From sequence record OP595146.1: a stretch of DNA of 64,000 nucleotides; one strand, written 5' to 3'. This stretch comes from Escherichia phage vB_EcoM_DE17. The position numbers and the translations under genes are program-made. How positions within the stretch are numbered: position 1 is the first letter of the stretch; every line of letters begins with the position of its first letter. The notes below the pieces were generated by a model that saw only the letters and a program-made list of their open reading frames with translations, had not been told where the DNA came from and did no database searches. Below are positions 10,187-41,291 of the stretch, piece by piece.

Positions 10187-10197
10187 AATATCTTAAG

Positions 10198-10226
10198 AGC
10201 CTCCTTAATTGGGGGCTTTTTAATTT
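10198..10226 (+). terminator. rho-independent terminator
   Basis: AGCCTCC-TTAATT-GGGGGCT hairpin (one G-U pair) followed by TTTTTAATTTTT. Confidence 0.5.
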
Positions 10227-10229
10227 TTA

Positions 10230-11785
10230 TAAAATTTATCGGTTGTCCCAACCTCTGGGTCACCATCATATGTGAATAAAAATATCTACCCTTCTTAACA
10301 ACCTCCTTAATCTTACTCTCTATATAGTTATATAGTACTATATAGTATCTTAGTATCTATCTAGTGGTCTTAATAGCCCCTCTGTATAGCCCTTCTAAAC
10401 ACTCTTCTAACAAGCCTTCTTAACAACCTATACAATCACATTAACCATCTCTCTATACCCTCTTAGAAGCTCCTATACACCTCTTAATCTCTAGGTTAGC
10501 TATGTTACCCTCTATAGGTGTTCACTAGGTATTACTAAGCCTCTATATAGACTGTTTTAACAAACTTAACAGGAATATCTTTACAGACCTTATCTCACAA
10601 GGTCTAACACGGTACTAACAAGGTATCTTATAAGCCTGTTTATGCCTGTATTTTTAAAAGACTGTCTAGGTAATTATTCAGAATTTTAAAATTTTTATAA
10701 AATAGGACTATCAAGTCGTTTTTTAGGGTCTTTGAAGGAACTGAAAAATATCTGTCTAGGATGTATATCTGCTTGGTAGCCCTTAACAGCTCCCTTACCA
10801 TCCCTTTGCAGAATTTTAAAATATCCTTAACAATCTCTTAATAGTTCTTACAACCTCTTAACATCTCTTCAGAGGTCTTAACAGATTCTTAACAGTTTTA
10901 ACAAGAGCTTAACAGTTTCTTAACAGTTGATACATAGGCTTTACAGAGTCTTAACAGATGACTAACAAGAGCTAACAAGTTAATTTTAAAGAGTTATTTT
11001 GTTAAGATAATTAACAAGTTCCTAACAAGTGTTTAACCTTTTTAACAAGCTATTAACATGGTCACAGTGGTTGTTTACAAACACAACTTATCTCTTTCTT
11101 ATCGTCCCCTTTCCCTCTTAGTGATTCTCTAAATAGCCCTCTTAAAAGCTCTCTATAGCCCCTTATAAGCTCTTTTAAGTCTCTTCCTAGTAATTACACC
11201 CCAACTATGTAGACACCTCTTTATAAGGCTTTACAGGAGCTTTTAAGGCTATGCTAAAGACTCTTACAAGGCTTTTACGTGGTCTTAACAGAGATTTAAC
11301 AAGGGGCTAACAAGTCTCTAACAAGCATAACTATGTAGGGATTGTTAAGAAATTGTTAAGAGAATGTTAAGGGGGCTAGCATTTACGTAACTTTATAGCC
11401 TCTTTTACGTAACTTTTAAGCCCCTATAACATACTTTTAAGACACTAACAAGCCCTTTTTAGATATTCACAAGATAACTAACGAGATGATAAAGCTTACA
11501 CCCTTATAAGATTCTTTTGAGGCTATAGGAAGCTTTATAAAGGGCTTTTTAGAGTGGGTTAATGCAATCCCTTAAGTTAGGTTGATAAGTCTGTTATAGG
11601 GCTTTATAGAGCGTTTAAATGGTTGCCCTTCCCTTTCGGGTTATGGGCTTTTATTTAAGTTGATTTGATAAGAGGTTATAGAGTAGACTATAGAGTTATT
11701 GTTTTTAAGGTACGAGATAGATTCTGTCGAATAAGTGGGATAGATTCTGGAAAGGAAAGGGATTGTATAGAGTCTATTACATAGA
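10230..11785. repeat. ORF-free, repeat-dense region with strand compositional skew
   Basis: No ORF of 60 aa or more in any frame across ~1.6 kb; plus strand pyrimidine-rich and G-poor around 10260-10560; many copies of CTTAACA(G/A), TAACAAG, CTTATAAG and CTTTTAAG, with inverted TTGTTAAG copies near 11340-11375. Confidence 0.7.
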
Positions 11786-11842
11786 CGTAAAAAAGCCCCT
11801 ATGAGAAAGGGGCTGTAAAGGTATCTGGGGCTATTTAGCCCC
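11786..11842 (-). terminator. tandem terminator hairpins closing the minus-strand small-gene array
   Basis: On the minus strand, GGGGCT-AAAT-AGCCCC then AGCCCCT-TTCTCAT-AGGGGCT followed by TTTTTT. Confidence 0.55.
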
Positions 11843-11852
11843 GTTGCGTCGA

Positions 11853-18160: not shown

Positions 18161-18946
18161 TTAGTTCTTTGCGTCTAAGAAGGTAACTTCTTGTGATGAG
18201 AAAATCTCCTCGATATCCTCATCAGTTCTTGCATAGATATAAGTATCTGCATCACTGCCAAATGTTACTGCAATCCTGTGATTGCTCTTCGACAGGTGGG
18301 TAACTAGAGCGTTACTTAGAGACATCTTTTCAACCGGAGGGTTACTTTGATGTATCTTGCCTTTTCTTCGTCTGAAGAGGGTAACTGCATCATCAGTGAA
18401 CGTTACTACACCTGCAAAGTATTCTGGTTCACAGTAGTTCTTCCAACCTGAGAGTAACTTGTGGTACAACTCTCCTTCGTAGACATATAGATAAACATCT
18501 ACACTCTTCATCACCTGATTAATGATAACGGTGACGGCTTGAGGGTCTAGTCCACCGATACCTGCACCAATCATAGGTAACCCAACTTTCTTCAACTGAT
18601 TAACTTCACAGTACCTGTTAAGCTGTTTCAAAGATGATTCTAAAGCACTGTATCGGGCATCTTTACCAGTCTTAAGCTGAGTGTAAAGGTTAGCTATACG
18701 GCCTTGTTTTAAACGTGCTACAGAGAAATTACCTAGTAAGTTCTCACAGGGCTTGTGGCCTATGCCACCTGCATACAGATAAACTTCTGTATCAGTCTCA
18801 TATGCTTTTGGGTAAAGTTTAGAAATCTTGTCAGCGATACCTGCACCCATTAAATTCATACAGTTGCAACCGTGACCAATGACGTCAAACTTACCTTTAT
18901 CAAATGCGGCAAAGATATCACCATTGATGATTTTTATAATACCCAT
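18161..18946 (-). CDS. macro-domain (ADP-ribose-binding/processing) protein with C-terminal extension
   Basis: 261 aa; N-terminal IINGDIF...DVIGHGCNCMNLMGAGIA and later GLPMIGAGIGGLDP follow the macro-domain pattern (G-D-I-x, H/N-x-x-N-x-x-x-G-x-G-I-A, second Gly-rich loop). Recalled pattern, not a search hit. Confidence 0.6.
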   Translation of the reverse strand: MGIIKIINGDIFAAFDKGKFDVIGHGCNCMNLMGAGIADKISKLYPKAYETDTEVYLYAGGIGHKPCENLLGNFSVARLKQGRIANLYTQLKTGKDARYSALESSLKQLNRYCEVNQLKKVGLPMIGAGIGGLDPQAVTVIINQVMKSVDVYLYVYEGELYHKLLSGWKNYCEPEYFAGVVTFTDDAVTLFRRRKGKIHQSNPPVEKMSLSNALVTHLSKSNHRIAVTFGSDADTYIYARTDEDIEEIFSSQEVTFLDAKN

Positions 18947-27043: not shown

Positions 27044-27067
27044 ATTAAAAAGGCTCCCGTAGGAGCC
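27044..27067 (-). terminator. rho-independent terminator (minus strand)
   Basis: GGCTCC-CGTA-GGAGCC hairpin with a minus-strand U-run, immediately after the NAMPT-like gene. Confidence 0.55.
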
Positions 27068-27082
27068 TCTTATCATATACTT

Positions 27083-28864
27083 TTAAAGCTGCTTGTCAAT
27101 ATTATTTCGAATATCACCAAGAGTTGTGTAGCCGAACTGCTCAGAGTCGCTAAAGACTAAACGTAAAGCACAAGCTGGATGTTCAAGTGCATCTGCAAAG
27201 CTCTGGAATCCATAGCCATCTACAGCTTTCAGATTCTCACCATCCCACATAGGGGCTACACCACCAAAAGCAGACTTCTTAACACCACTATCTGTTTTAG
27301 GGTCTTTTGCAAGCATAATCTCTTTACCACCAATTCTTGCAAGAGTTGCTTTGACAGCAAATGCAAAGGTGTCACGAGTCATGTACTGGTAAGTGTAAGA
27401 ACCTACACCAAACACTACGTTAGAGCTTGCAAAACCCATTTCATACAAACGCTTAAGGATTTCGTTTGCGCGTTCCAACGTGATAGAGTCACCATAAATA
27501 AGTCCGATATGCTCATCCAGTACTTTAAAACCTTTAGAGTTGATAGTTCCTCCAAAGATGTTATACAGTGTCTTGATAGCTCCATCAATCTCCGCTACAG
27601 GACGTGTTACAACGTTTGCAGAACCAACCATATAAGCATTTTTCAACAGCACTGTATCAGCAACTTCAAAGTCTTCTCTGTCAACAACCATTTCGTAACC
27701 TTCTGACAGTAGCCATCCAGCAATACCATAATTGATGTTTTCAAGCTTCATGTTCAGAACAGCATTCAGCATTGTGTCGCTGGCTTCCAGCTTACTTAGG
27801 TGTTCGTAATAAGCCTTTTTAGCACACTCTAAATGGATTGCTTTGTATCCTGTGACAATATGTACAGGGTCTCCAGAATCAGGACGAATTACCAGTTTGC
27901 CATCACGTTCCATAATCTCTTTACGGAGTTCTGGCAATATGACTGATACAGTTCTCCAGAAGTTATAAGTATCTGAAACAACACTTGCAATACCAGTTGG
28001 GTAAGTTTTTGTTAAGAAACGACGGAAGGTTTGTAACTCACCTTTAAAGCGTCTTTCTTCTTCAATCAACTCGTTACCACCTTCCCAAGCAATGTTTGCA
28101 CACATTACAGAATGTTCAGTGGCTGGTACAGAGCTACCAATATCAGAGATTGGGTAGGACTGTCCATAGATGCGTTTAGCTGTATACACAGCAGGGAAGC
28201 TATCAGTCCCTTTAAAGCTGGTTAAGTGACCTACAGCGTTAAATGCGTCATCAGTAAAGCCAGACATACCACGCATAGCAAAGTCATGGCACTGGTAAGG
28301 TAAATGTAAGTCGTTGTCACAAGTAAGGTCAGCCCACTTCTTACAGATACGTTTGTAGTGCAATGCAATAGTTGCAATGGTACAAGCCTTCCAAATCTCA
28401 GCAGAGAAAGCATCTTCCAGATACCCCGCTACCCAATGGAAACCTGAAACAGTGTTCTGGAAAACAATCATTGGTACACGCATAGGGACAACTGTACCTT
28501 CTTCTACAGCGTAGACTTCAACTGGTAAATAACCTAAGTCGTGGAGTGCTTCCCAATGTTCTCGACCAATAGCATCTTTACCCAGAACACCATTCATGAC
28601 TTCTAAGATTTCGTCAATTGCTTCTTTTTTGTCACGTTCAAAGAACGTAGCATTCCAATGGTCTATCAGGTAATCTTTAACAAAACGTTGAATACCAAAA
28701 GCAACTACACCATCAATTGCTAAGGGGCTGTTAAACCATTTGTCACTACGTGGTGTCAGGTTGAACATCAAGTACTCTGTTGCGCTAGGATACTGGTAGA
28801 TGTGACCAGATTTGTAAGCATCTGCGTTTAAACCTGCTGGTACTGCATAAAGTGATTTAGTCAT
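27083..28864 (-). CDS. nicotinamide phosphoribosyltransferase homolog (NadV/NAMPT family; Namat-like)
   Basis: 593 aa; N-terminal NADAYKSGH and overall length fit the NAMPT family; paired with a PRPP-synthetase homolog. Confidence 0.8.
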   Translation of the reverse strand: MTKSLYAVPAGLNADAYKSGHIYQYPSATEYLMFNLTPRSDKWFNSPLAIDGVVAFGIQRFVKDYLIDHWNATFFERDKKEAIDEILEVMNGVLGKDAIGREHWEALHDLGYLPVEVYAVEEGTVVPMRVPMIVFQNTVSGFHWVAGYLEDAFSAEIWKACTIATIALHYKRICKKWADLTCDNDLHLPYQCHDFAMRGMSGFTDDAFNAVGHLTSFKGTDSFPAVYTAKRIYGQSYPISDIGSSVPATEHSVMCANIAWEGGNELIEEERRFKGELQTFRRFLTKTYPTGIASVVSDTYNFWRTVSVILPELRKEIMERDGKLVIRPDSGDPVHIVTGYKAIHLECAKKAYYEHLSKLEASDTMLNAVLNMKLENINYGIAGWLLSEGYEMVVDREDFEVADTVLLKNAYMVGSANVVTRPVAEIDGAIKTLYNIFGGTINSKGFKVLDEHIGLIYGDSITLERANEILKRLYEMGFASSNVVFGVGSYTYQYMTRDTFAFAVKATLARIGGKEIMLAKDPKTDSGVKKSAFGGVAPMWDGENLKAVDGYGFQSFADALEHPACALRLVFSDSEQFGYTTLGDIRNNIDKQL

Positions 28865-28909
28865 CTTTTAATCTCTCTCAAAATGGGGCTTTTAAGCCCC
28901 TATAAACTT

Positions 28910-29806
28910 TCAATCAAGGTTTGCTACAGTAACTTGACTATAATGTGTTAAGCCACGGTCTTTAGCTTCGCCTAAAGAGTTTGTAGTGTAAATATGGTCG
29001 ATACCATTGTCAAGAAGGTTTTCAACATCTTTAGAGAAGATACCATGTGTTACATAAAGTTCCACACGTTTTGCACCTGCTTCACGAAGATGTTTCGCTG
29101 CTTCTATGAAGGTTCGACCACCATCACAGATATCATCCAGAATCATAACGGTTTTATCTGTCAAATCAACATCATCAAGGATTCGCATACCAGTAATTTC
29201 ACCAGTCTTAAGGTTACGCACTTTAGACATTGTGATGTATGGTTTATCCACCTCTTTAGCAGTCTCTGCAATCTTCTTAGCAGCACCTGCATCTGGGGCT
29301 ACTAAGTAATCAATCAGTGGGTCATTTGCATAGTGGACTGCAATTTCCTTTTGAGGAATACTCTGGAAGCAGTTAAACAGGTTATCTGGTACATAGCTGT
29401 GAGGGTCAACTGCACAGACTGCACCAAATCCCATTGCATTTACCTGTTTAGCAAAAACCTTTAAAGCTGCTGCGTCACCTTTAAACATGTGACGGTCATA
29501 GCGTGCATTTGGTAAGTAGTAAAAGATGACAGTCTTTAAAGCATAATCATGAGGAATTAAATCATCAATTGCTTCTTTAGCAAGTGCCACAGCAAACAAT
29601 GTATCCTTATCATAACCTTTTACAATCATAATCACATTGTTGATGGATGATGCTGCATAAGCAGTGAAATCAACAAACTCTGGCGAAAAGTGTCCACCAA
29701 TCTCACCAGAAGGAAATTGGATGATGTTAAACTCTTCTTCATGAGTTCCTTTAGTTGGTGAATGAACTGTAACACGGATAGATGTTTTCATAGTTTTCTC
29801 TCTCAA
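28910..29806 (-). CDS. ribose-phosphate pyrophosphokinase homolog (Prs family; Adps-like)
   Basis: 298 aa; FPSGE (compare Prs FSDGE), DPHSYVPDNLF (compare DLHAEQIQGFF) and the PRPP-binding loop ILDDICDGGRT. Confidence 0.75.
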   Translation of the reverse strand: MREKTMKTSIRVTVHSPTKGTHEEEFNIIQFPSGEIGGHFSPEFVDFTAYAASSINNVIMIVKGYDKDTLFAVALAKEAIDDLIPHDYALKTVIFYYLPNARYDRHMFKGDAAALKVFAKQVNAMGFGAVCAVDPHSYVPDNLFNCFQSIPQKEIAVHYANDPLIDYLVAPDAGAAKKIAETAKEVDKPYITMSKVRNLKTGEITGMRILDDVDLTDKTVMILDDICDGGRTFIEAAKHLREAGAKRVELYVTHGIFSKDVENLLDNGIDHIYTTNSLGEAKDRGLTHYSQVTVANLD

Positions 29807-30081
29807 TCAAAAGTTACGTTTGTTACTGCCATTGCAGATTTGCATTTTGCAGGGTCTACAACGTGATAAAGTACACTACAGTTACCTGTGCTGTCTGGTA
29901 CAGGTTTAACCCATTGTTGCTTGACAGTTGGTTCGCCTAAGTCTTTGTAAGAACCATCTGTAAAGTTGTTTACCATCTCAAGTGCAATTGGCTCTGGAAC
30001 ATGACCACGTATCATGTACATTTCACAGCCATTACCACCTTCACTGACTAATGGTAAAATCTCCCACTTTTCTTTAGCCAT
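29803..30081 (-). CDS. hypothetical protein
   Basis: 92-aa ORF coupled to the Prs-like gene. Confidence 0.5.
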   Translation of the reverse strand: MAKEKWEILPLVSEGGNGCEMYMIRGHVPEPIALEMVNNFTDGSYKDLGEPTVKQQWVKPVPDSTGNCSVLYHVVDPAKCKSAMAVTNVTFD

Positions 30082-30589
30082 TGTAAGTTGCCCTATAAAC
30101 TATCTCGAACTTCAACAGGAGAGATATTGCCAAATCTGTATAGTTGTTGTCAAGCACATCTGGCATATTATTTTTGATATATCTCTCTTGCTCTTCATAG
30201 GTCATCTTAGGGGTACTTAAAAGACTATCTCCTTGCTTCTGGTTATCAGCTTTAGTCTGAATAAACCAGTTTGCACAGTGATGTTCGCCACCTTTTGTAA
30301 CAGGTTTGTGGTGGCCTAATGTGAAGGATTGACTGCCTGTGTATCTGCAAAGTTTATTGAGTACTGTAATGGTGTTCTTCACAACAAAGCATTCATATAG
30401 GTTGTCTATGGTGTAGTGTGGGTAATATCGAAATAATGCTCTTTCACGAGTACTCTCACGATTCCAGAGAATCATGTGGTTGGAGTTGGAAGGGTCGTAT
30501 TGGTGGGAGTCAATGAACTCTTGACGTTCCTCAAAACTGAGTCTTAACACTGACATTGCAGCAGAACGTTTCAGATTTGACAGATACAT
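30074..30589 (-). CDS. putative HNH-family endonuclease
   Basis: 171 aa; GHHKPVTKGGEHHCANW resembles the HNH H-H...GG...N core. Motif-only. Confidence 0.35.
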   Translation of the reverse strand: MYLSNLKRSAAMSVLRLSFEERQEFIDSHQYDPSNSNHMILWNRESTRERALFRYYPHYTIDNLYECFVVKNTITVLNKLCRYTGSQSFTLGHHKPVTKGGEHHCANWFIQTKADNQKQGDSLLSTPKMTYEEQERYIKNNMPDVLDNNYTDLAISLLLKFEIVYRATYNG

Positions 30590-30640
30590 ATTATCTCCAA
30601 AATAAAAAGGGAACCTTTACAGTTCCCTTATAGTATCTGC

Positions 30641-32865: not shown

Positions 32866-35010
32866 TTACATAGAGACTCTATCACGAATCTCAGCGATTT
32901 TTGCATCGTTCATTCGGGATTCACCTTTAATCTTAGTCCATCCAAGATACCCACACACCCTGTTAATCACAGAGATATCATGTGAATGGCAAACCTCACA
33001 TTCTTCAACATCAGCCTTTGGTCTGTTACCACAATGTTCACAGATTGCTAAGTCAAAGTTAAGCCCCTGATAGAAACCTTTCAACATCCCTCTGGTAATA
33101 CAACTTTTAAGTGCTGTTAAGTTTTCTGGATTAGCTACCCTTACATACTGGATTCTGCCACCTCTACAGATATGGAAGAATGGCTCTTCTAAGTCCTGCT
33201 TCTCAAATGGTGAGATGTCTGCTGCAACATTCATATGAAAACTATTTGTGAAGTATTCCTTGTCAGAAACACCTTTAATAACGCCAAACATATCTCTGAA
33301 CTGTTTTAACTGAGTTCCGCAAAGTGATTCTGCTGGAGTACCATAGACGGCATATAAGAAGCCATCTTCATTTTTAAACTCTTCAGTTTTCATGTTGATG
33401 TATGCCAGAACATCGTATGCAAAACTACAGCTTCCAACTTCATGAAGTCGTTTACCTTCAGCAAGAACAGATAGCTCATCAAGCGCGGTAACCCCAAAAG
33501 AAGCTGTGAAGGACTTCACGATATCCCAGCCAACCTTGTCAGTAGGTTTCTTATTCCCTTTGTACAGACCACCTTGTGTGAATGCAAGAGGGTTAGAACT
33601 TGCTGGCATATTAGCAATCATTTCGTAACGTTTCTTGTGGAAGCTGCGAATCATCTCTAGGTACTTATCAAGCTCTTTCCAGAAATCTAAGCCATTCTCT
33701 TTAGAATACTGGTAAATCATTGGTAAGTTCAAAGATACAGCACCAATGTTAGCACGACCAACATAGAACTCTTCCCCATTCTCATTAAAATATGGAGATA
33801 AGAAGGCTCTGCAACCCATCGGTGAAATTACCTTGCCAGAACGCTCAAAAGCTTCTGCTACAGCACCATGACCAGATACGCTTAAGAAATCTGGATACAT
33901 CGCTTTAGAGCAACACTCAATAGCTTTACTGTACAGGTGTCCTTGACAGATATTTTCATCATGTCTCTTCTGGTCATAGATATAAACCAGCTTAGGAAAT
34001 ACAACAGGTTTTTTACTCTTACCTTGTCCATTCATACGAACATCTAGGAGAGTACTTGCAATCATGTATTGTAGTCGGTTGTCTTCATTAGACATGTCTG
34101 AGTCAAGCAAACCAAATGTTAAAGTTGTGAATGCAAAATCACCACGGCTGCAAGGTACAGTATTTAGTTTCATCTCTAGTGACTGGAAGCCTTGAGTTAA
34201 TTCAATCTGTAGCTGCTCCATGACATAGTTATGGTAATGTTCTTTAGGAATACCGTAAGATGCTGCTTTCTCAGCATGATAGCGTAGAGACTTCTTAGCA
34301 TACGGTACAAGTGCCTTATCAATCTCTGCTAAAGTAAATCCACCAAATTGCTGTGCAGTTGCTGAAAGAACTACATCACCGATAACTTGTAAGGCTGACA
34401 GTACAGACTTCGGTTCACAGTATTCGATGCCAGACATTTCAAAGCCACCTTTCAGTACTTTACCAATGTCGAACAGGCAACAGTTAATCCCACCAAAAAT
34501 TAGGTCTCTTAAGTCATGGATGTAGATAAACCCTTTTTCAATGGCTTCGAGTTCCTCTGGTGTTAAATGGTACTGTTTAAAGATTTCTTTAGTCAGATAA
34601 CCACGAATAATTGAACCTTTTGTAGAAATTAAACTACTGTCAAAGTTAGCATTTTCACGGTCACCTAAGAAGAGTGTGTCTCTGGTCTTTTGGTAAAGCT
34701 CATCCCAATTTTGAGCAACCTCTTTACGGTAATTTCTGTATGTTGAGTAAGACTCATAAATCTCGTGATTGACTTCTGCCAAAGCACCCTCAACAATGCT
34801 GTGGATATCATTTACCGAGATAAGCAAATTACCCTGCTTAGTGGACTTTACCAGAATCCTCATAAATGCTGACTCAAGAGCTTGGGTAACATCTGGTGGC
34901 AGTTCTTTATATCCAACCCTGTTAGCTGACTTTGTCACTGCCGCTAAAACTTTTTTGATATCAGGTTCTTCAAGTGAGCCATTCTTTTTAATAATCTGTA
35001 CTTTGTTCAT
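32866..35010 (-). CDS. nrdD: anaerobic ribonucleoside-triphosphate reductase
   Basis: 714 aa; C-terminal glycyl-radical motif RVCGY and a preceding Cys-rich zinc ribbon (CEHCGN...CEVCH). Confidence 0.9.
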   Translation of the reverse strand: MNKVQIIKKNGSLEEPDIKKVLAAVTKSANRVGYKELPPDVTQALESAFMRILVKSTKQGNLLISVNDIHSIVEGALAEVNHEIYESYSTYRNYRKEVAQNWDELYQKTRDTLFLGDRENANFDSSLISTKGSIIRGYLTKEIFKQYHLTPEELEAIEKGFIYIHDLRDLIFGGINCCLFDIGKVLKGGFEMSGIEYCEPKSVLSALQVIGDVVLSATAQQFGGFTLAEIDKALVPYAKKSLRYHAEKAASYGIPKEHYHNYVMEQLQIELTQGFQSLEMKLNTVPCSRGDFAFTTLTFGLLDSDMSNEDNRLQYMIASTLLDVRMNGQGKSKKPVVFPKLVYIYDQKRHDENICQGHLYSKAIECCSKAMYPDFLSVSGHGAVAEAFERSGKVISPMGCRAFLSPYFNENGEEFYVGRANIGAVSLNLPMIYQYSKENGLDFWKELDKYLEMIRSFHKKRYEMIANMPASSNPLAFTQGGLYKGNKKPTDKVGWDIVKSFTASFGVTALDELSVLAEGKRLHEVGSCSFAYDVLAYINMKTEEFKNEDGFLYAVYGTPAESLCGTQLKQFRDMFGVIKGVSDKEYFTNSFHMNVAADISPFEKQDLEEPFFHICRGGRIQYVRVANPENLTALKSCITRGMLKGFYQGLNFDLAICEHCGNRPKADVEECEVCHSHDISVINRVCGYLGWTKIKGESRMNDAKIAEIRDRVSM

Positions 35011-40793: not shown

Positions 40794-41291
40794 TCAAGCA
40801 CAGTTTGCTTTCATTACCTTATGGATTCTTTTTTCAGCATCTTCATAAGTTTCTTTAGTAATAAACTTAATTGCTGCAATATTGGCATTGTAGAAGAGTC
40901 TGAGCTTAGAGTCAATCCTTTTTGTCATTACATCGAATTTATGTTGAAGGTTTGCTTCACCATAAACTAGACCACCTTTTGTGTAGTAGGTTTGAATAAT
41001 GTAAAAGTCAAAAAATTCTTTTCCAAAGCTCTCAATATCTTTTTTGATATACTCAGAAGAAGTCTCATAAGTCATCCAATCACTTTCCTTAGTGACTACC
41101 TTCTTCCGAGTCTTGCCAGCAACTTTTCTTTTGGTCACACTATTAAGCTGTTTCTTTCCGATATAGTATTGTCCGGTTTTCTTACAGTATACTAAATAGA
41201 CAAAGCCAAAATGTTTAGTGGGGTCAACTTCCCCACACAAAGATACCCAATGACCGTAGGTAGGACAATTGCCAAATCCTTTAATCTTCAT
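40794..41291 (-). CDS. putative GIY-YIG-type nuclease
   Basis: 165 aa; VYLVYCKKTGQYYIGKK resembles the GIY-(x9-10)-YIG signature. Motif-only. Confidence 0.35.
   Translation of the reverse strand: MKIKGFGNCPTYGHWVSLCGEVDPTKHFGFVYLVYCKKTGQYYIGKKQLNSVTKRKVAGKTRKKVVTKESDWMTYETSSEYIKKDIESFGKEFFDFYIIQTYYTKGGLVYGEANLQHKFDVMTKRIDSKLRLFYNANIAAIKFITKETYEDAEKRIHKVMKANCA

Follow-up and report, generated by a model that had tools for sequence, protein, structure and literature searches.

Genomic setting of the operon

Two adjacent minus-strand genes of Escherichia phage vB_EcoM_DE17 (sequence record OP595146.1), at positions 28910-29791 and 27083-28864 of the 64-kb stretch of DNA analysed here (hereafter the window), very probably constitute, judging from their sequences, a NARP1 operon encoding the proteins Adps and Namat. 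NARP1, a published phage route that restores NAD+ degraded by bacterial immune enzymes, was discovered in the operon of genes 79 and 80 of Escherichia phage Bas63 (bioRxiv 10.1101/2024.02.11.579819), to which the window pair is orthologous in both sequence and genomic position. The window represents a Felixounavirus (FelixO1-like) genome, collinear with that of Bas63 at approximately 91-95% nucleotide identity, and in both phages the pair is flanked by nrdD/nrdG on one side and rIIA/rIIB on the other. Orthology, synteny and the conservation of mapped functional residues are established for the window pair, and we infer by homology that the same chemistry and phenotype exist in the DE17 phage. 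Because this phage is a close relative of Bas63, the source of the NARP1 discovery, the finding is not new: the operon is a textbook case of a system already in the literature, and no new biology is added, since NARP1 was found in the same phage genus.

A preliminary description of this DNA had noted a NAMPT-like/Prs-like pair and preferred NARP1 to ordinary salvage by Prs and NadV. The pair is real, both ORFs being present on the minus strand with Pfam and PHROG matches far beyond chance, and the preference for NARP1 is upheld by orthology to Bas63 genes 79-80 and by clade-specific signatures in both proteins. In ordinary salvage, the Prs-like enzyme would make PRPP from ribose-5-phosphate, the NAMPT-like enzyme would make NMN from it, and host NadR or PncC would complete NAD+. 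We regard this as very unlikely here, although it is the reading that generic models suggest by the names they give the proteins (Pfam, PHROG, a narrow pass of TIGR01251 and a pass of NF006629). The GenBank records point the same way: the adps-namat region matches 250 phage records (best 97.9%), and the labels for the two genes among the matches listed are Prs and NAMPT or NAPRT. Recognition of NARP1 corrects the labels 'ribose-phosphate pyrophosphokinase' and 'nicotinate/nicotinamide phosphoribosyltransferase' on every annotated relative listed.

The adps gene and its product

The Prs-like ORF matches Pribosyltran and Pribosyl_synth in Pfam and phrog_619 ('ribose-phosphate pyrophosphokinase', 4.7e-97). 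It had been described as reaching position 29806, and a mechanical ORF of 298 aa that starts with TTG does exist there (28910-29806), but the most likely start is the ATG at 29791, which gives a gene at 28910-29791 (minus strand) and a protein of 293 aa. A GAGAGAG ribosome-binding site is located 6 nt 5' of this ATG, and the same motif is found ahead of namat. The length counted from this ATG equals that of bas63_0079, and the TTG at 29806 shares nucleotides with the stop codon of the preceding ORF. Based on orthology to bas63_0079, on individual residues and on profiles, we designate this gene adps, encoding a putative ADP-ribose diphosphokinase (ADPR-PP synthetase).

The window protein is 78% identical to bas63_0079 across all 293 aa. 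Its identity to the Adps proteins of ICP1, Pontus and SPbetaL1 is 36.7, 38.0 and 35.6%, respectively, and that to E. coli Prs is 28.7%. Sequence similarity separates Adps from Prs only weakly at the distant end, where the Adps of FADO scores 68 bits and E. coli Prs 61 bits, and the assignment is accordingly based on orthology, on signature residues, on a profile test made in both directions and on the neighbouring namat gene. In the profile test, an Adps profile from which Ounavirinae members had been left out gave 207 bits for the window protein versus 119 for E. coli Prs, whereas the Prs subfamily model TIGR01251 gave 123.5 bits for the window protein (cutoff 113) versus 422.7 for E. coli Prs. 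The window protein falls below the cutoffs of all Prs equivalog models (best 103.7 bits versus a cutoff of 296), which argues against salvage.

The catalytic lysine is kept (K190, corresponding to K185 of ICP1 and K162 of SPbetaL1), as are the residues F26, R97, H131, D167, D219 and D220 that match the functional set of ICP1. Three ligand-contact residues of ICP1 Adps are changed in the window protein (F92 to M102, A219 to R226 and F223 to E230), and all three are changed likewise in Bas63. The preliminary description had reported an intact PRPP-binding loop. A loop is present, but it is the PP loop of Adps type, DDICDGGRTF (residues 219-228, with C222-D-G-G-R-T-F228), and not the DDMIDTGGTL of Prs; the DxxDTGGT ribose-5-phosphate loop of canonical Prs does not occur in the window protein, CDGGRT standing in its place. 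In the ICP1 Adps structures, the PP loop grips the donor phosphates of ATP and not ribose-5-phosphate (PMC13586617). The C-terminus of the window protein is short, and the regulatory region of Prs (alpha11-alpha12) is absent from it in the alignment. Both the loop and the missing regulatory C-terminus count against a salvage enzyme, and by these signatures the window protein belongs to the Adps clade.

The N-terminal domain of Adps exists as two alleles. Over the first ~150 codons (~440 nt), the window and Bas63 have 64-75% nucleotide identity, as against 90-97% in the flanks. A weaker idea is that a host factor directed against Adps may have selected for the divergence of these two alleles.

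The namat gene and its product

The second gene, namat (27083-28864, minus strand), encodes a NAMPT-like protein of 593 aa, a putative nicotinamide ADP-ribose transferase according to its orthology to bas63_0080, structure matches and motifs. In Pfam, this ORF matches NAPRTase at 3.2e-34, and its match to NAMPT_N (2.6e-05, 24.8 bits) lies just under the 25-bit gathering cutoff; among the PHROG families it matches phrog_448 ('nicotinamide phosphoribosyl transferase', 1e-201). It is 97% identical to bas63_0080 and 27% identical to KVP40 NadV. The top matches among solved structures are those of SPbetaL1 Namat (9W5W/9W5X, 2e-127), followed by the bacterial Nampt of Xcc (1e-51) and human NAMPT (3.5e-41). 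Since the window Namat and KVP40 NadV both pass the NCBIfam model NF006629, that model cannot tell the two apart.

The catalytic core is kept (D15, Y17, F195, R198, D221, H251, R327 and D329). An adenine clamp motif confined to Namat proteins has been defined as GSx-phi-x-phi-x-phi-TRD (PMC12774641). The window protein has the clamp helix GSYTYQYMTRD at residues 488-498, where KVP40 NadV has GGGLLQQLDRD; this, too, speaks against salvage. Its clamp loop, TPRSDKWF, is identical to that of Bas63 and contains K42-W43, an arrangement of a lysine followed by a stacking residue. When the window proteins were aligned with Adps and Namat on the one hand and with Prs and NadV on the other, a comparison proposed in the preliminary description, both sided with Adps and Namat.

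Namat also carries a 77-residue insertion (residues 351-427) that is lineage-specific (Ounavirinae) and common to Bas63. A single-sequence AlphaFold2 model of the protein had a mean pLDDT of 33.7 and a pTM of 0.21, values that make it unusable for placing this insertion.

Proposed pathway and evidence from homologs

In the pathway proposed for these proteins, a host NADase effector (SIR2-HerA, type I Thoeris, DSR1/DSR2, SEFIR or similar) would split NAD+ into ADP-ribose and nicotinamide. With Adps as catalyst, ATP would then donate its beta,gamma-diphosphate to the 1'' hydroxyl of ADP-ribose, yielding ADPR-PP. ADP-ribose would occupy the groove in which Prs binds ADP and ribose-5-phosphate, the remodelled PP loop would hold ATP, and K190 would act as the catalytic lysine. 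Namat would exchange the diphosphate of ADPR-PP for nicotinamide and thereby form NAD+ directly; its NAMPT-like core is predicted to be supplemented by the adenine clamp (helix residues Y490 and Y494, loop residues K42/W43), which would pick ADPR-PP over PRPP. The cost would be one ATP, with no NMN intermediate and no need for host NadR or PncC.

Deletion of the two-gene operon (79-80) renders Bas63 sensitive to SIR2-HerA, its counter-defence is independent of host pncC or nadR, and ADPR-PP was detected in vivo only in the presence of both the defence system and the Bas63 operon (bioRxiv 10.1101/2024.02.11.579819). In a second, independent study, single deletion of g79 or g80 caused a 10^4-10^6-fold loss of plating, which was restored by complementation (10.1101/2024.10.10.617714). 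The Bas63 enzymes resisted purification; enzymology has been shown for homologs from SPbetaL1, ICP1, DyoEdafos and Paenibacillus foliorum, and the in vitro chemistry comes from homologs that are 36-43% identical to the window proteins.

The same enzymology bears on salvage from both sides. SPbetaL1 Namat also accepts PRPP in vitro and converts it to NMN (PMC12774641; bioRxiv 10.1101/2024.02.11.579819), so that some conventional salvage activity may still occur. However, SPbetaL1 Adps yielded no Prs product, and Namat offered PRPP and ADPR-PP together made only NAD+ (bioRxiv 10.1101/2024.02.11.579819).

The NAMPT-family protein could alternatively belong to a pathway of NARP2 type (Nampt plus a phage NMN adenylyltransferase) or NARP3 type (PnuC-like import of nicotinamide riboside plus a NadR-like enzyme), and KVP40 NadV does pass the same NCBIfam model. 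We scanned 98 ORFs with an ATG start and a length of 60 aa or more throughout the 64 kb, approximately 23 kb of the genome lying outside the window. No CTP_transf_like/NMNAT, Nudix, NadR, PnuC or RyR domain was found by Pfam at E<=1e-3 in the whole window, and no NMN adenylyltransferase is listed in the full Bas63 annotation, in agreement with the preliminary description, which had seen none nearby; nor does that annotation list a Nudix, NadR or PnuC domain. Together with the 27% identity to KVP40 NadV, the Namat motif in place of the Nampt one and a partner gene that encodes a protein of the Adps clade, this makes a NARP2 or NARP3 pathway exceedingly improbable. NARP1 explains the escape of a large group of coliphages and Salmonella phages from NAD+-depleting defences such as SIR2-HerA, type I Thoeris and DSR1/2, and many of these phages are considered for therapy and biocontrol.

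Operon layout and neighbouring genes

The adps gene lies directly 5' of namat, separated from it by a 45-nt spacer, and both are on the minus strand. In the original survey, Namat was the neighbour of 97% of Adps-clade genes (bioRxiv 10.1101/2024.02.11.579819). The spacer contains a hairpin on the minus strand (GGGGCT-TAAA-AGCCCC, followed by ATTTT, at 28880-28900), whose RNA fold has a centroid energy of -11.5 kcal/mol and a z-score of -2.2. In Bas63 both stems are kept and one loop base is changed. The hairpin was not called by the consensus terminator scan; it may attenuate transcription weakly or stabilise the RNA.

The terminator scan identified a minus-strand stem-loop of 10 pairs followed by a T-run at 27048-27071, beginning 12 nt past the namat stop codon and identical in Bas63; it probably marks the end of the transcription unit. 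A second terminator-like stem-loop on the same strand, upstream at 30607-30629, is the probable 5' boundary of the unit that holds adps and namat. Between this site and adps are two tightly packed minus-strand ORFs, one of 171 aa at 30074-30589, orthologous to Bas63 gp77 (96.5% identity to bas63_0077), and one of 92 aa at 29803-30081, orthologous to gp78 (98.9% identity to bas63_0078). They match phrog_3500 and phrog_4726, and a weak hit to an HNH endonuclease was obtained for the 171-aa ORF. Bas63 gp77 has been reported to counter retron Ec67. The two orthologs probably share the transcription unit with adps-namat but are not core NARP1; the same four-gene order is found in Erwinia phage Omen and not in Salmonella phage pSal-SNUABM-01. 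Pfam detected no Macro or RyR domain (Adpp, RyDEP) in four ORFs next to the operon, two on its upstream side and two of the three on its downstream side. Rfam at the gathering threshold returned two tRNAs only, and none of its hits was in the operon or the ORF-free zone.

A distal Macro-domain protein

Adpp is the ADPR-1''-phosphate phosphatase of NARP1-AP. The only Macro-domain protein of the window is an Adpp homolog of 261 aa, encoded at 18161-18946 on the minus strand (Pfam Macro, 1e-07), about 8.1 kb and 14 ORFs from adps-namat. It is 95.8% identical to bas63_0095 (gp95) and is kept across Ounavirinae. Both this protein and the verified Adpp of Vibrio phage Gary fall in phrog_335 (3.5e-112 and 1.3e-49, respectively), and the two are 28% identical over the whole Macro domain (E 7e-14). 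Compared at the level of motifs, they have in common both ADP-ribose-binding motifs, H-x-C-N-C-x3-M-G-x-G-I-A and G-L-P-x-I-G-x-G-x2-G-x-D (ending in G-L-D here and in G-G-D in Gary).

A tentative extension of the NARP1 reading is that Felixounaviruses run a split form of NARP1-AP. The Macro protein would dephosphorylate ADPR-1''-phosphate produced by aRES-type RES-domain NADases and feed ADP-ribose to Adps and Namat, which could then also rebuild NAD+ after aRES cleavage. The common PHROG family, the presence of both binding motifs, the location of the gene on the NARP1 strand and the conservation of the protein in Bas63 and Ounavirinae are consistent with such an arrangement. The table of NARP1-AP phages given by the authors of that system contains no Escherichia or Salmonella phage, and a split arrangement would thus have gone uncounted. 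However, several terminator-like sites lie between the Macro gene and the operon, the protein has an extra C-terminal stretch of ~100 aa, and its top NCBIfam match is the DarG macro domain, far under the cutoff. In addition, Macro homologs that are at least as similar (about 34%) are found in T4-like phages, which to our knowledge lack NARP1; the family is therefore no specific marker of NARP1. NARP1-AP has been recognized by a Poa1p-like Macro-domain phosphatase inside the NARP1 operon, and none was found among the neighbour ORFs scanned (two upstream, two of three downstream). On balance we consider the split form rather unlikely; if it is true, the criterion of operon adjacency undercounts NARP1-AP phages (15% of NARP1 phages).

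Comparison with known systems

The window pair belongs to the same superfamilies (type II phosphoribosyltransferase and the Prs fold) as the enzymes of NARP2 (KVP40 NadV plus NMNAT) and of bacterial salvage by Prs and NadV, and nicotinamide is the substrate in each. It differs from them in having no NMNAT partner and in carrying an aromatic clamp in place of the Nampt-type GGGLLQ helix; canonical Prs, unlike the window Adps, has the regulatory C-terminus and passes the Prs equivalog models.

The NARP1 of the Bacillus phage SPbetaL1 and the Adps of the Vibrio phage ICP1 (PMC13586617) have the same two-gene order as the window, and the catalytic lysine, the ADPR-groove residues, the PP loop, the Namat core and the clamp motif are conserved, whereas identity to the window proteins is 36-43%. 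Within the PP loop, the window has CDGGRT, SPbetaL1 SSFGGT and ICP1 CDGAAS. Compared with SPbetaL1 Namat, the window protein is extended by insertions at two places (about 15 and about 77 aa) and has a clamp loop that is four residues longer, with K-W replacing the stacking Arg. Vibrio phage Gary has NARP1-AP as an adps-adpp-namat operon, and Adps, Namat and an Adpp-family Macro protein are also encoded in the window. However, the Macro gene lies between adps and namat in Gary and Pontus, whereas that of the window is ~8 kb away and encodes a ~100-aa extra C-terminus.

The closest known system is that of Bas63 (JohannRWettstein, MZ501086). It differs from the window in the allele of the first ~150 codons of adps and in its nrdD, which contains an intron and a homing endonuclease that are absent from the window nrdD. 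In contrast, bas63_0079 and bas63_0080 agree with the window genes in genus, genome position, flanks and protein lengths (293 and 593 aa). The two phages also have the same terminator sequence downstream of namat and share, within Namat, the clamp loop, the clamp helix and the insertion of 77 aa.

Identification of the gene pair

The preliminary description had placed a NAMPT-like gene beside a Prs-like gene, and both ORFs proved to be real, on the minus strand, with unambiguous Pfam and PHROG matches. The NAMPT-family gene, namat (27083-28864), encodes 593 aa (Pfam NAPRTase, 3.2e-34; phrog_448, 1e-201), and the Prs-family gene, adps, spans 28910-29806 when counted from a TTG codon (Pfam Pribosyltran and Pribosyl_synth; phrog_619, 4.7e-97). 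An ATG at 29791 seems a more plausible adps start than the TTG at 29806, because it is preceded by GAGAGAG, a motif also found ahead of namat, and because the resulting 293-aa product has exactly the annotated length of the ortholog in Escherichia phage JohannRWettstein (Bas63, MZ501086).

The 2.7-kb adps-namat region matched 250 phage records (top identity 97.9%), nearly all from Felixounavirus and related Ounavirinae infecting Escherichia, Salmonella, Shigella and Citrobacter. The whole window is collinear with Bas63, in reverse orientation, at approximately 91-95% nucleotide identity. Over their full lengths, Namat is 97% identical to bas63_0080 and Adps 78% identical to bas63_0079; the flanking genes are the same in both phages and 92-99% identical, except rIIB (83%). 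Adps is the protein furthest diverged from Bas63 among the neighbours compared. The first ~150 codons of adps (29350-29791, minus strand) have 64-75% nucleotide identity to Bas63, are flanked on either side by sequences of 90-97% identity, and contain no indels; judged from this alignment, they are a mosaic patch. Patch identity is bimodal across the database (approximately 155 records at >=90% and 98 at 60-80%), which indicates that Ounavirinae carry two circulating alleles of the N-terminal domain of Adps. By these record counts, the rarer allele is that of the experimentally tested Bas63.

Protein signatures and pathway assignment

In structures of Adps from phage ICP1, ADP-ribose spans the sites that hold ADP and ribose-5-phosphate in Prs, the ATP donor is held by a remodelled PP loop, and K185 is essential (PMC13586617). 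The window Adps keeps the ICP1-equivalent residues F26, R97, H131, D167, K190, D219 and D220, and differs from ICP1 Adps at three contact positions (M102, R226 and E230), all shared with Bas63. The "intact PRPP-binding loop" of the preliminary description does exist, but its sequence, CDGGRTF, is the Adps version, predicted to bind ATP rather than ribose-5-phosphate. The C-terminal regulatory and filament module of Prs is absent. With a profile made exclusively from Adps proteins outside Ounavirinae, the window Adps scored 207 bits versus 119 for E. coli Prs, whereas the curated Prs model TIGR01251 gave 123.5 versus 422.7, and the window Adps reached none of the Prs equivalog cutoffs.

In a sequence search of solved structures, the window Namat was closest to Namat of SPbetaL1 (9W5W and 9W5X, 2e-127), compared with 1e-51 for Xanthomonas Nampt and 3.5e-41 for human NAMPT. 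Residues 488-498 (GSYTYQYMTRD) fit the Namat-only motif GSx-phi-x-phi-x-phi-TRD (PMC12774641), whereas KVP40 NadV, an enzyme of the NARP2 pathway, has GGGLLQQLDRD at this position. The second clamp element, TPRSDKWF, has the form described for Bas63, a Lys followed by a stacking residue (PMC12774641). The catalytic core is complete, with R327 equivalent to the mutated R306. Relative to the SPbetaL1, FADO and KVP40 homologs, Namat contains a 77-aa insertion (residues ~351-427; 27584-27814, minus strand), which by tblastn is confined to Ounavirinae (253 records), and a second insertion of ~15 aa lies at residues ~258-277; neither is discussed in the structural paper (PMC12774641).

The preliminary description saw no NMN adenylyltransferase nearby, and this extends to the whole window: Pfam searches of 98 ORFs spanning it detected no domain of the NMN adenylyltransferase, Nudix, NadR, PnuC or RyR type, and the complete Bas63 annotation likewise lists none. 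These missing partner domains argue against NARP2, NARP3 (PnuC-like import with a NadR-like enzyme) and a RyDEP accessory. Ordinary salvage, with the Prs-like enzyme supplying PRPP to the NAMPT-like one, is very unlikely given the Adps and Namat signatures, even though SPbetaL1 Namat keeps a PRPP-dependent side activity in vitro. Together with the identities to the Bas63 pair and the shared neighbours, these clade signatures support the originally proposed reading, and the pair very probably constitutes NARP1, in which Adps converts ADP-ribose to ADPR-PP and Namat forms NAD+.

Gene organization and neighbours

The spacer between adps and namat is 45 nt long. Exactly at this junction lies a GC hairpin (28880-28900, minus strand) that is conserved and has ATTTT directly after it; in Erwinia phage Omen the junction is occupied by a free-standing HNH endonuclease gene. 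Strong terminator-like and terminator-like stem-loops follow namat (27071-27048) and lie upstream of adps (30629-30607), respectively. Between them, a 92-aa ORF (29803-30081, minus strand) is packed directly upstream of adps, and a 171-aa ORF (30074-30589, minus strand), nuclease-like with a weak HNH match, lies further upstream; this tight packing between the same two terminators suggests that both probably belong to the adps-namat unit. The four-gene order recurs in Omen, an Ounavirinae phage, but not in a NARP1 phage of unrelated descent, which marks the two additional ORFs as lineage-specific neighbours. The 171-aa protein is termed GIY-YIG in the literature. Activity against retron Ec67 has been reported for gp77, the ortholog of this protein in Bas63, and activity against qatABCD for the downstream rIIA/rIIB; the region thus looks like an anti-defence cluster.

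A 261-aa Macro-domain protein (18161-18946, minus strand), 95.8% identical to the "putative phosphatase" bas63_0095, shares phrog_335 with the verified Adpp of Vibrio phage Gary (28% identity across the whole Macro domain). Adpp is the ADPR-1''-phosphate phosphatase that turns NARP1 into NARP1-AP in that phage. The window protein also has an extra C-terminal stretch of ~100 aa. Its gene lies 14 ORFs (~8 kb) from adps and namat, and no Escherichia or Salmonella phage appears in the published table of NARP1-AP phages. Similar proteins are also carried by T4-like phages, which are not known to have NARP1. A functional link to NARP1 would therefore be a tentative and rather improbable proposal.

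Other regions of the window

An ORF-free zone of ~1.66 kb (10187-11852) between convergent gene blocks contains 27 of the window's 93 YTAACAR sites. The repeats are dense, an 11-nt phasing is kept by many of them, and copies in inverted orientation occur at 11342 and 11353. This array looks iteron-like; Rfam matched no family in the zone, and the corresponding gap in Bas63 (70493-72154) is likewise unannotated. Among the replication genes there is an ORF for a free-standing homing endonuclease of the SegE-type GIY-YIG class (40794-41291, minus strand; Pfam 2.3e-27). Next to the endolysin gene, an ORF on the plus strand (3939-5072) encodes a protein of 377 aa that carries three immunoglobulin-like domains; its Bas63 counterpart, annotated as an immunoglobulin-like domain protein, is ~83 aa longer (1383 versus 1134 nt). 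The window nrdD (32866-35010, minus strand) is a single uninterrupted 714-aa ORF, whereas that of Bas63 (bas63_0067) is annotated as two joined pieces enclosing bas63_0068, a homing-endonuclease gene; the window-Bas63 alignment breaks at window position 33813.

Comparison with the NARP1 operon of Bas63

Some uncertainty in the assignment comes from the in vitro NARP1 chemistry having been established with homologs that share 36-43% identity with the window pair. The original NARP1 study reportedly appeared later in Nature, in 2024. In Bas63, deletion of the operon gave sensitivity to SIR2-HerA, infection with the deletion mutant led to a further drop of NAD+ in cells, host pncC and nadR were dispensable for protection, and ADPR-PP was seen only when defence system and operon were present together (bioRxiv 10.1101/2024.02.11.579819). 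In an independent knockout screen, single deletion of g79 or g80 lowered plating efficiency on Sir2-HerA cells by 10^4-10^6, and complementation reversed the loss (10.1101/2024.10.10.617714). The window pair is orthologous to Bas63 genes 79 and 80, the two-gene operon from which NARP1 was first described (bioRxiv 10.1101/2024.02.11.579819); this orthology is what decides in favour of NARP1, and the finding is one already known.
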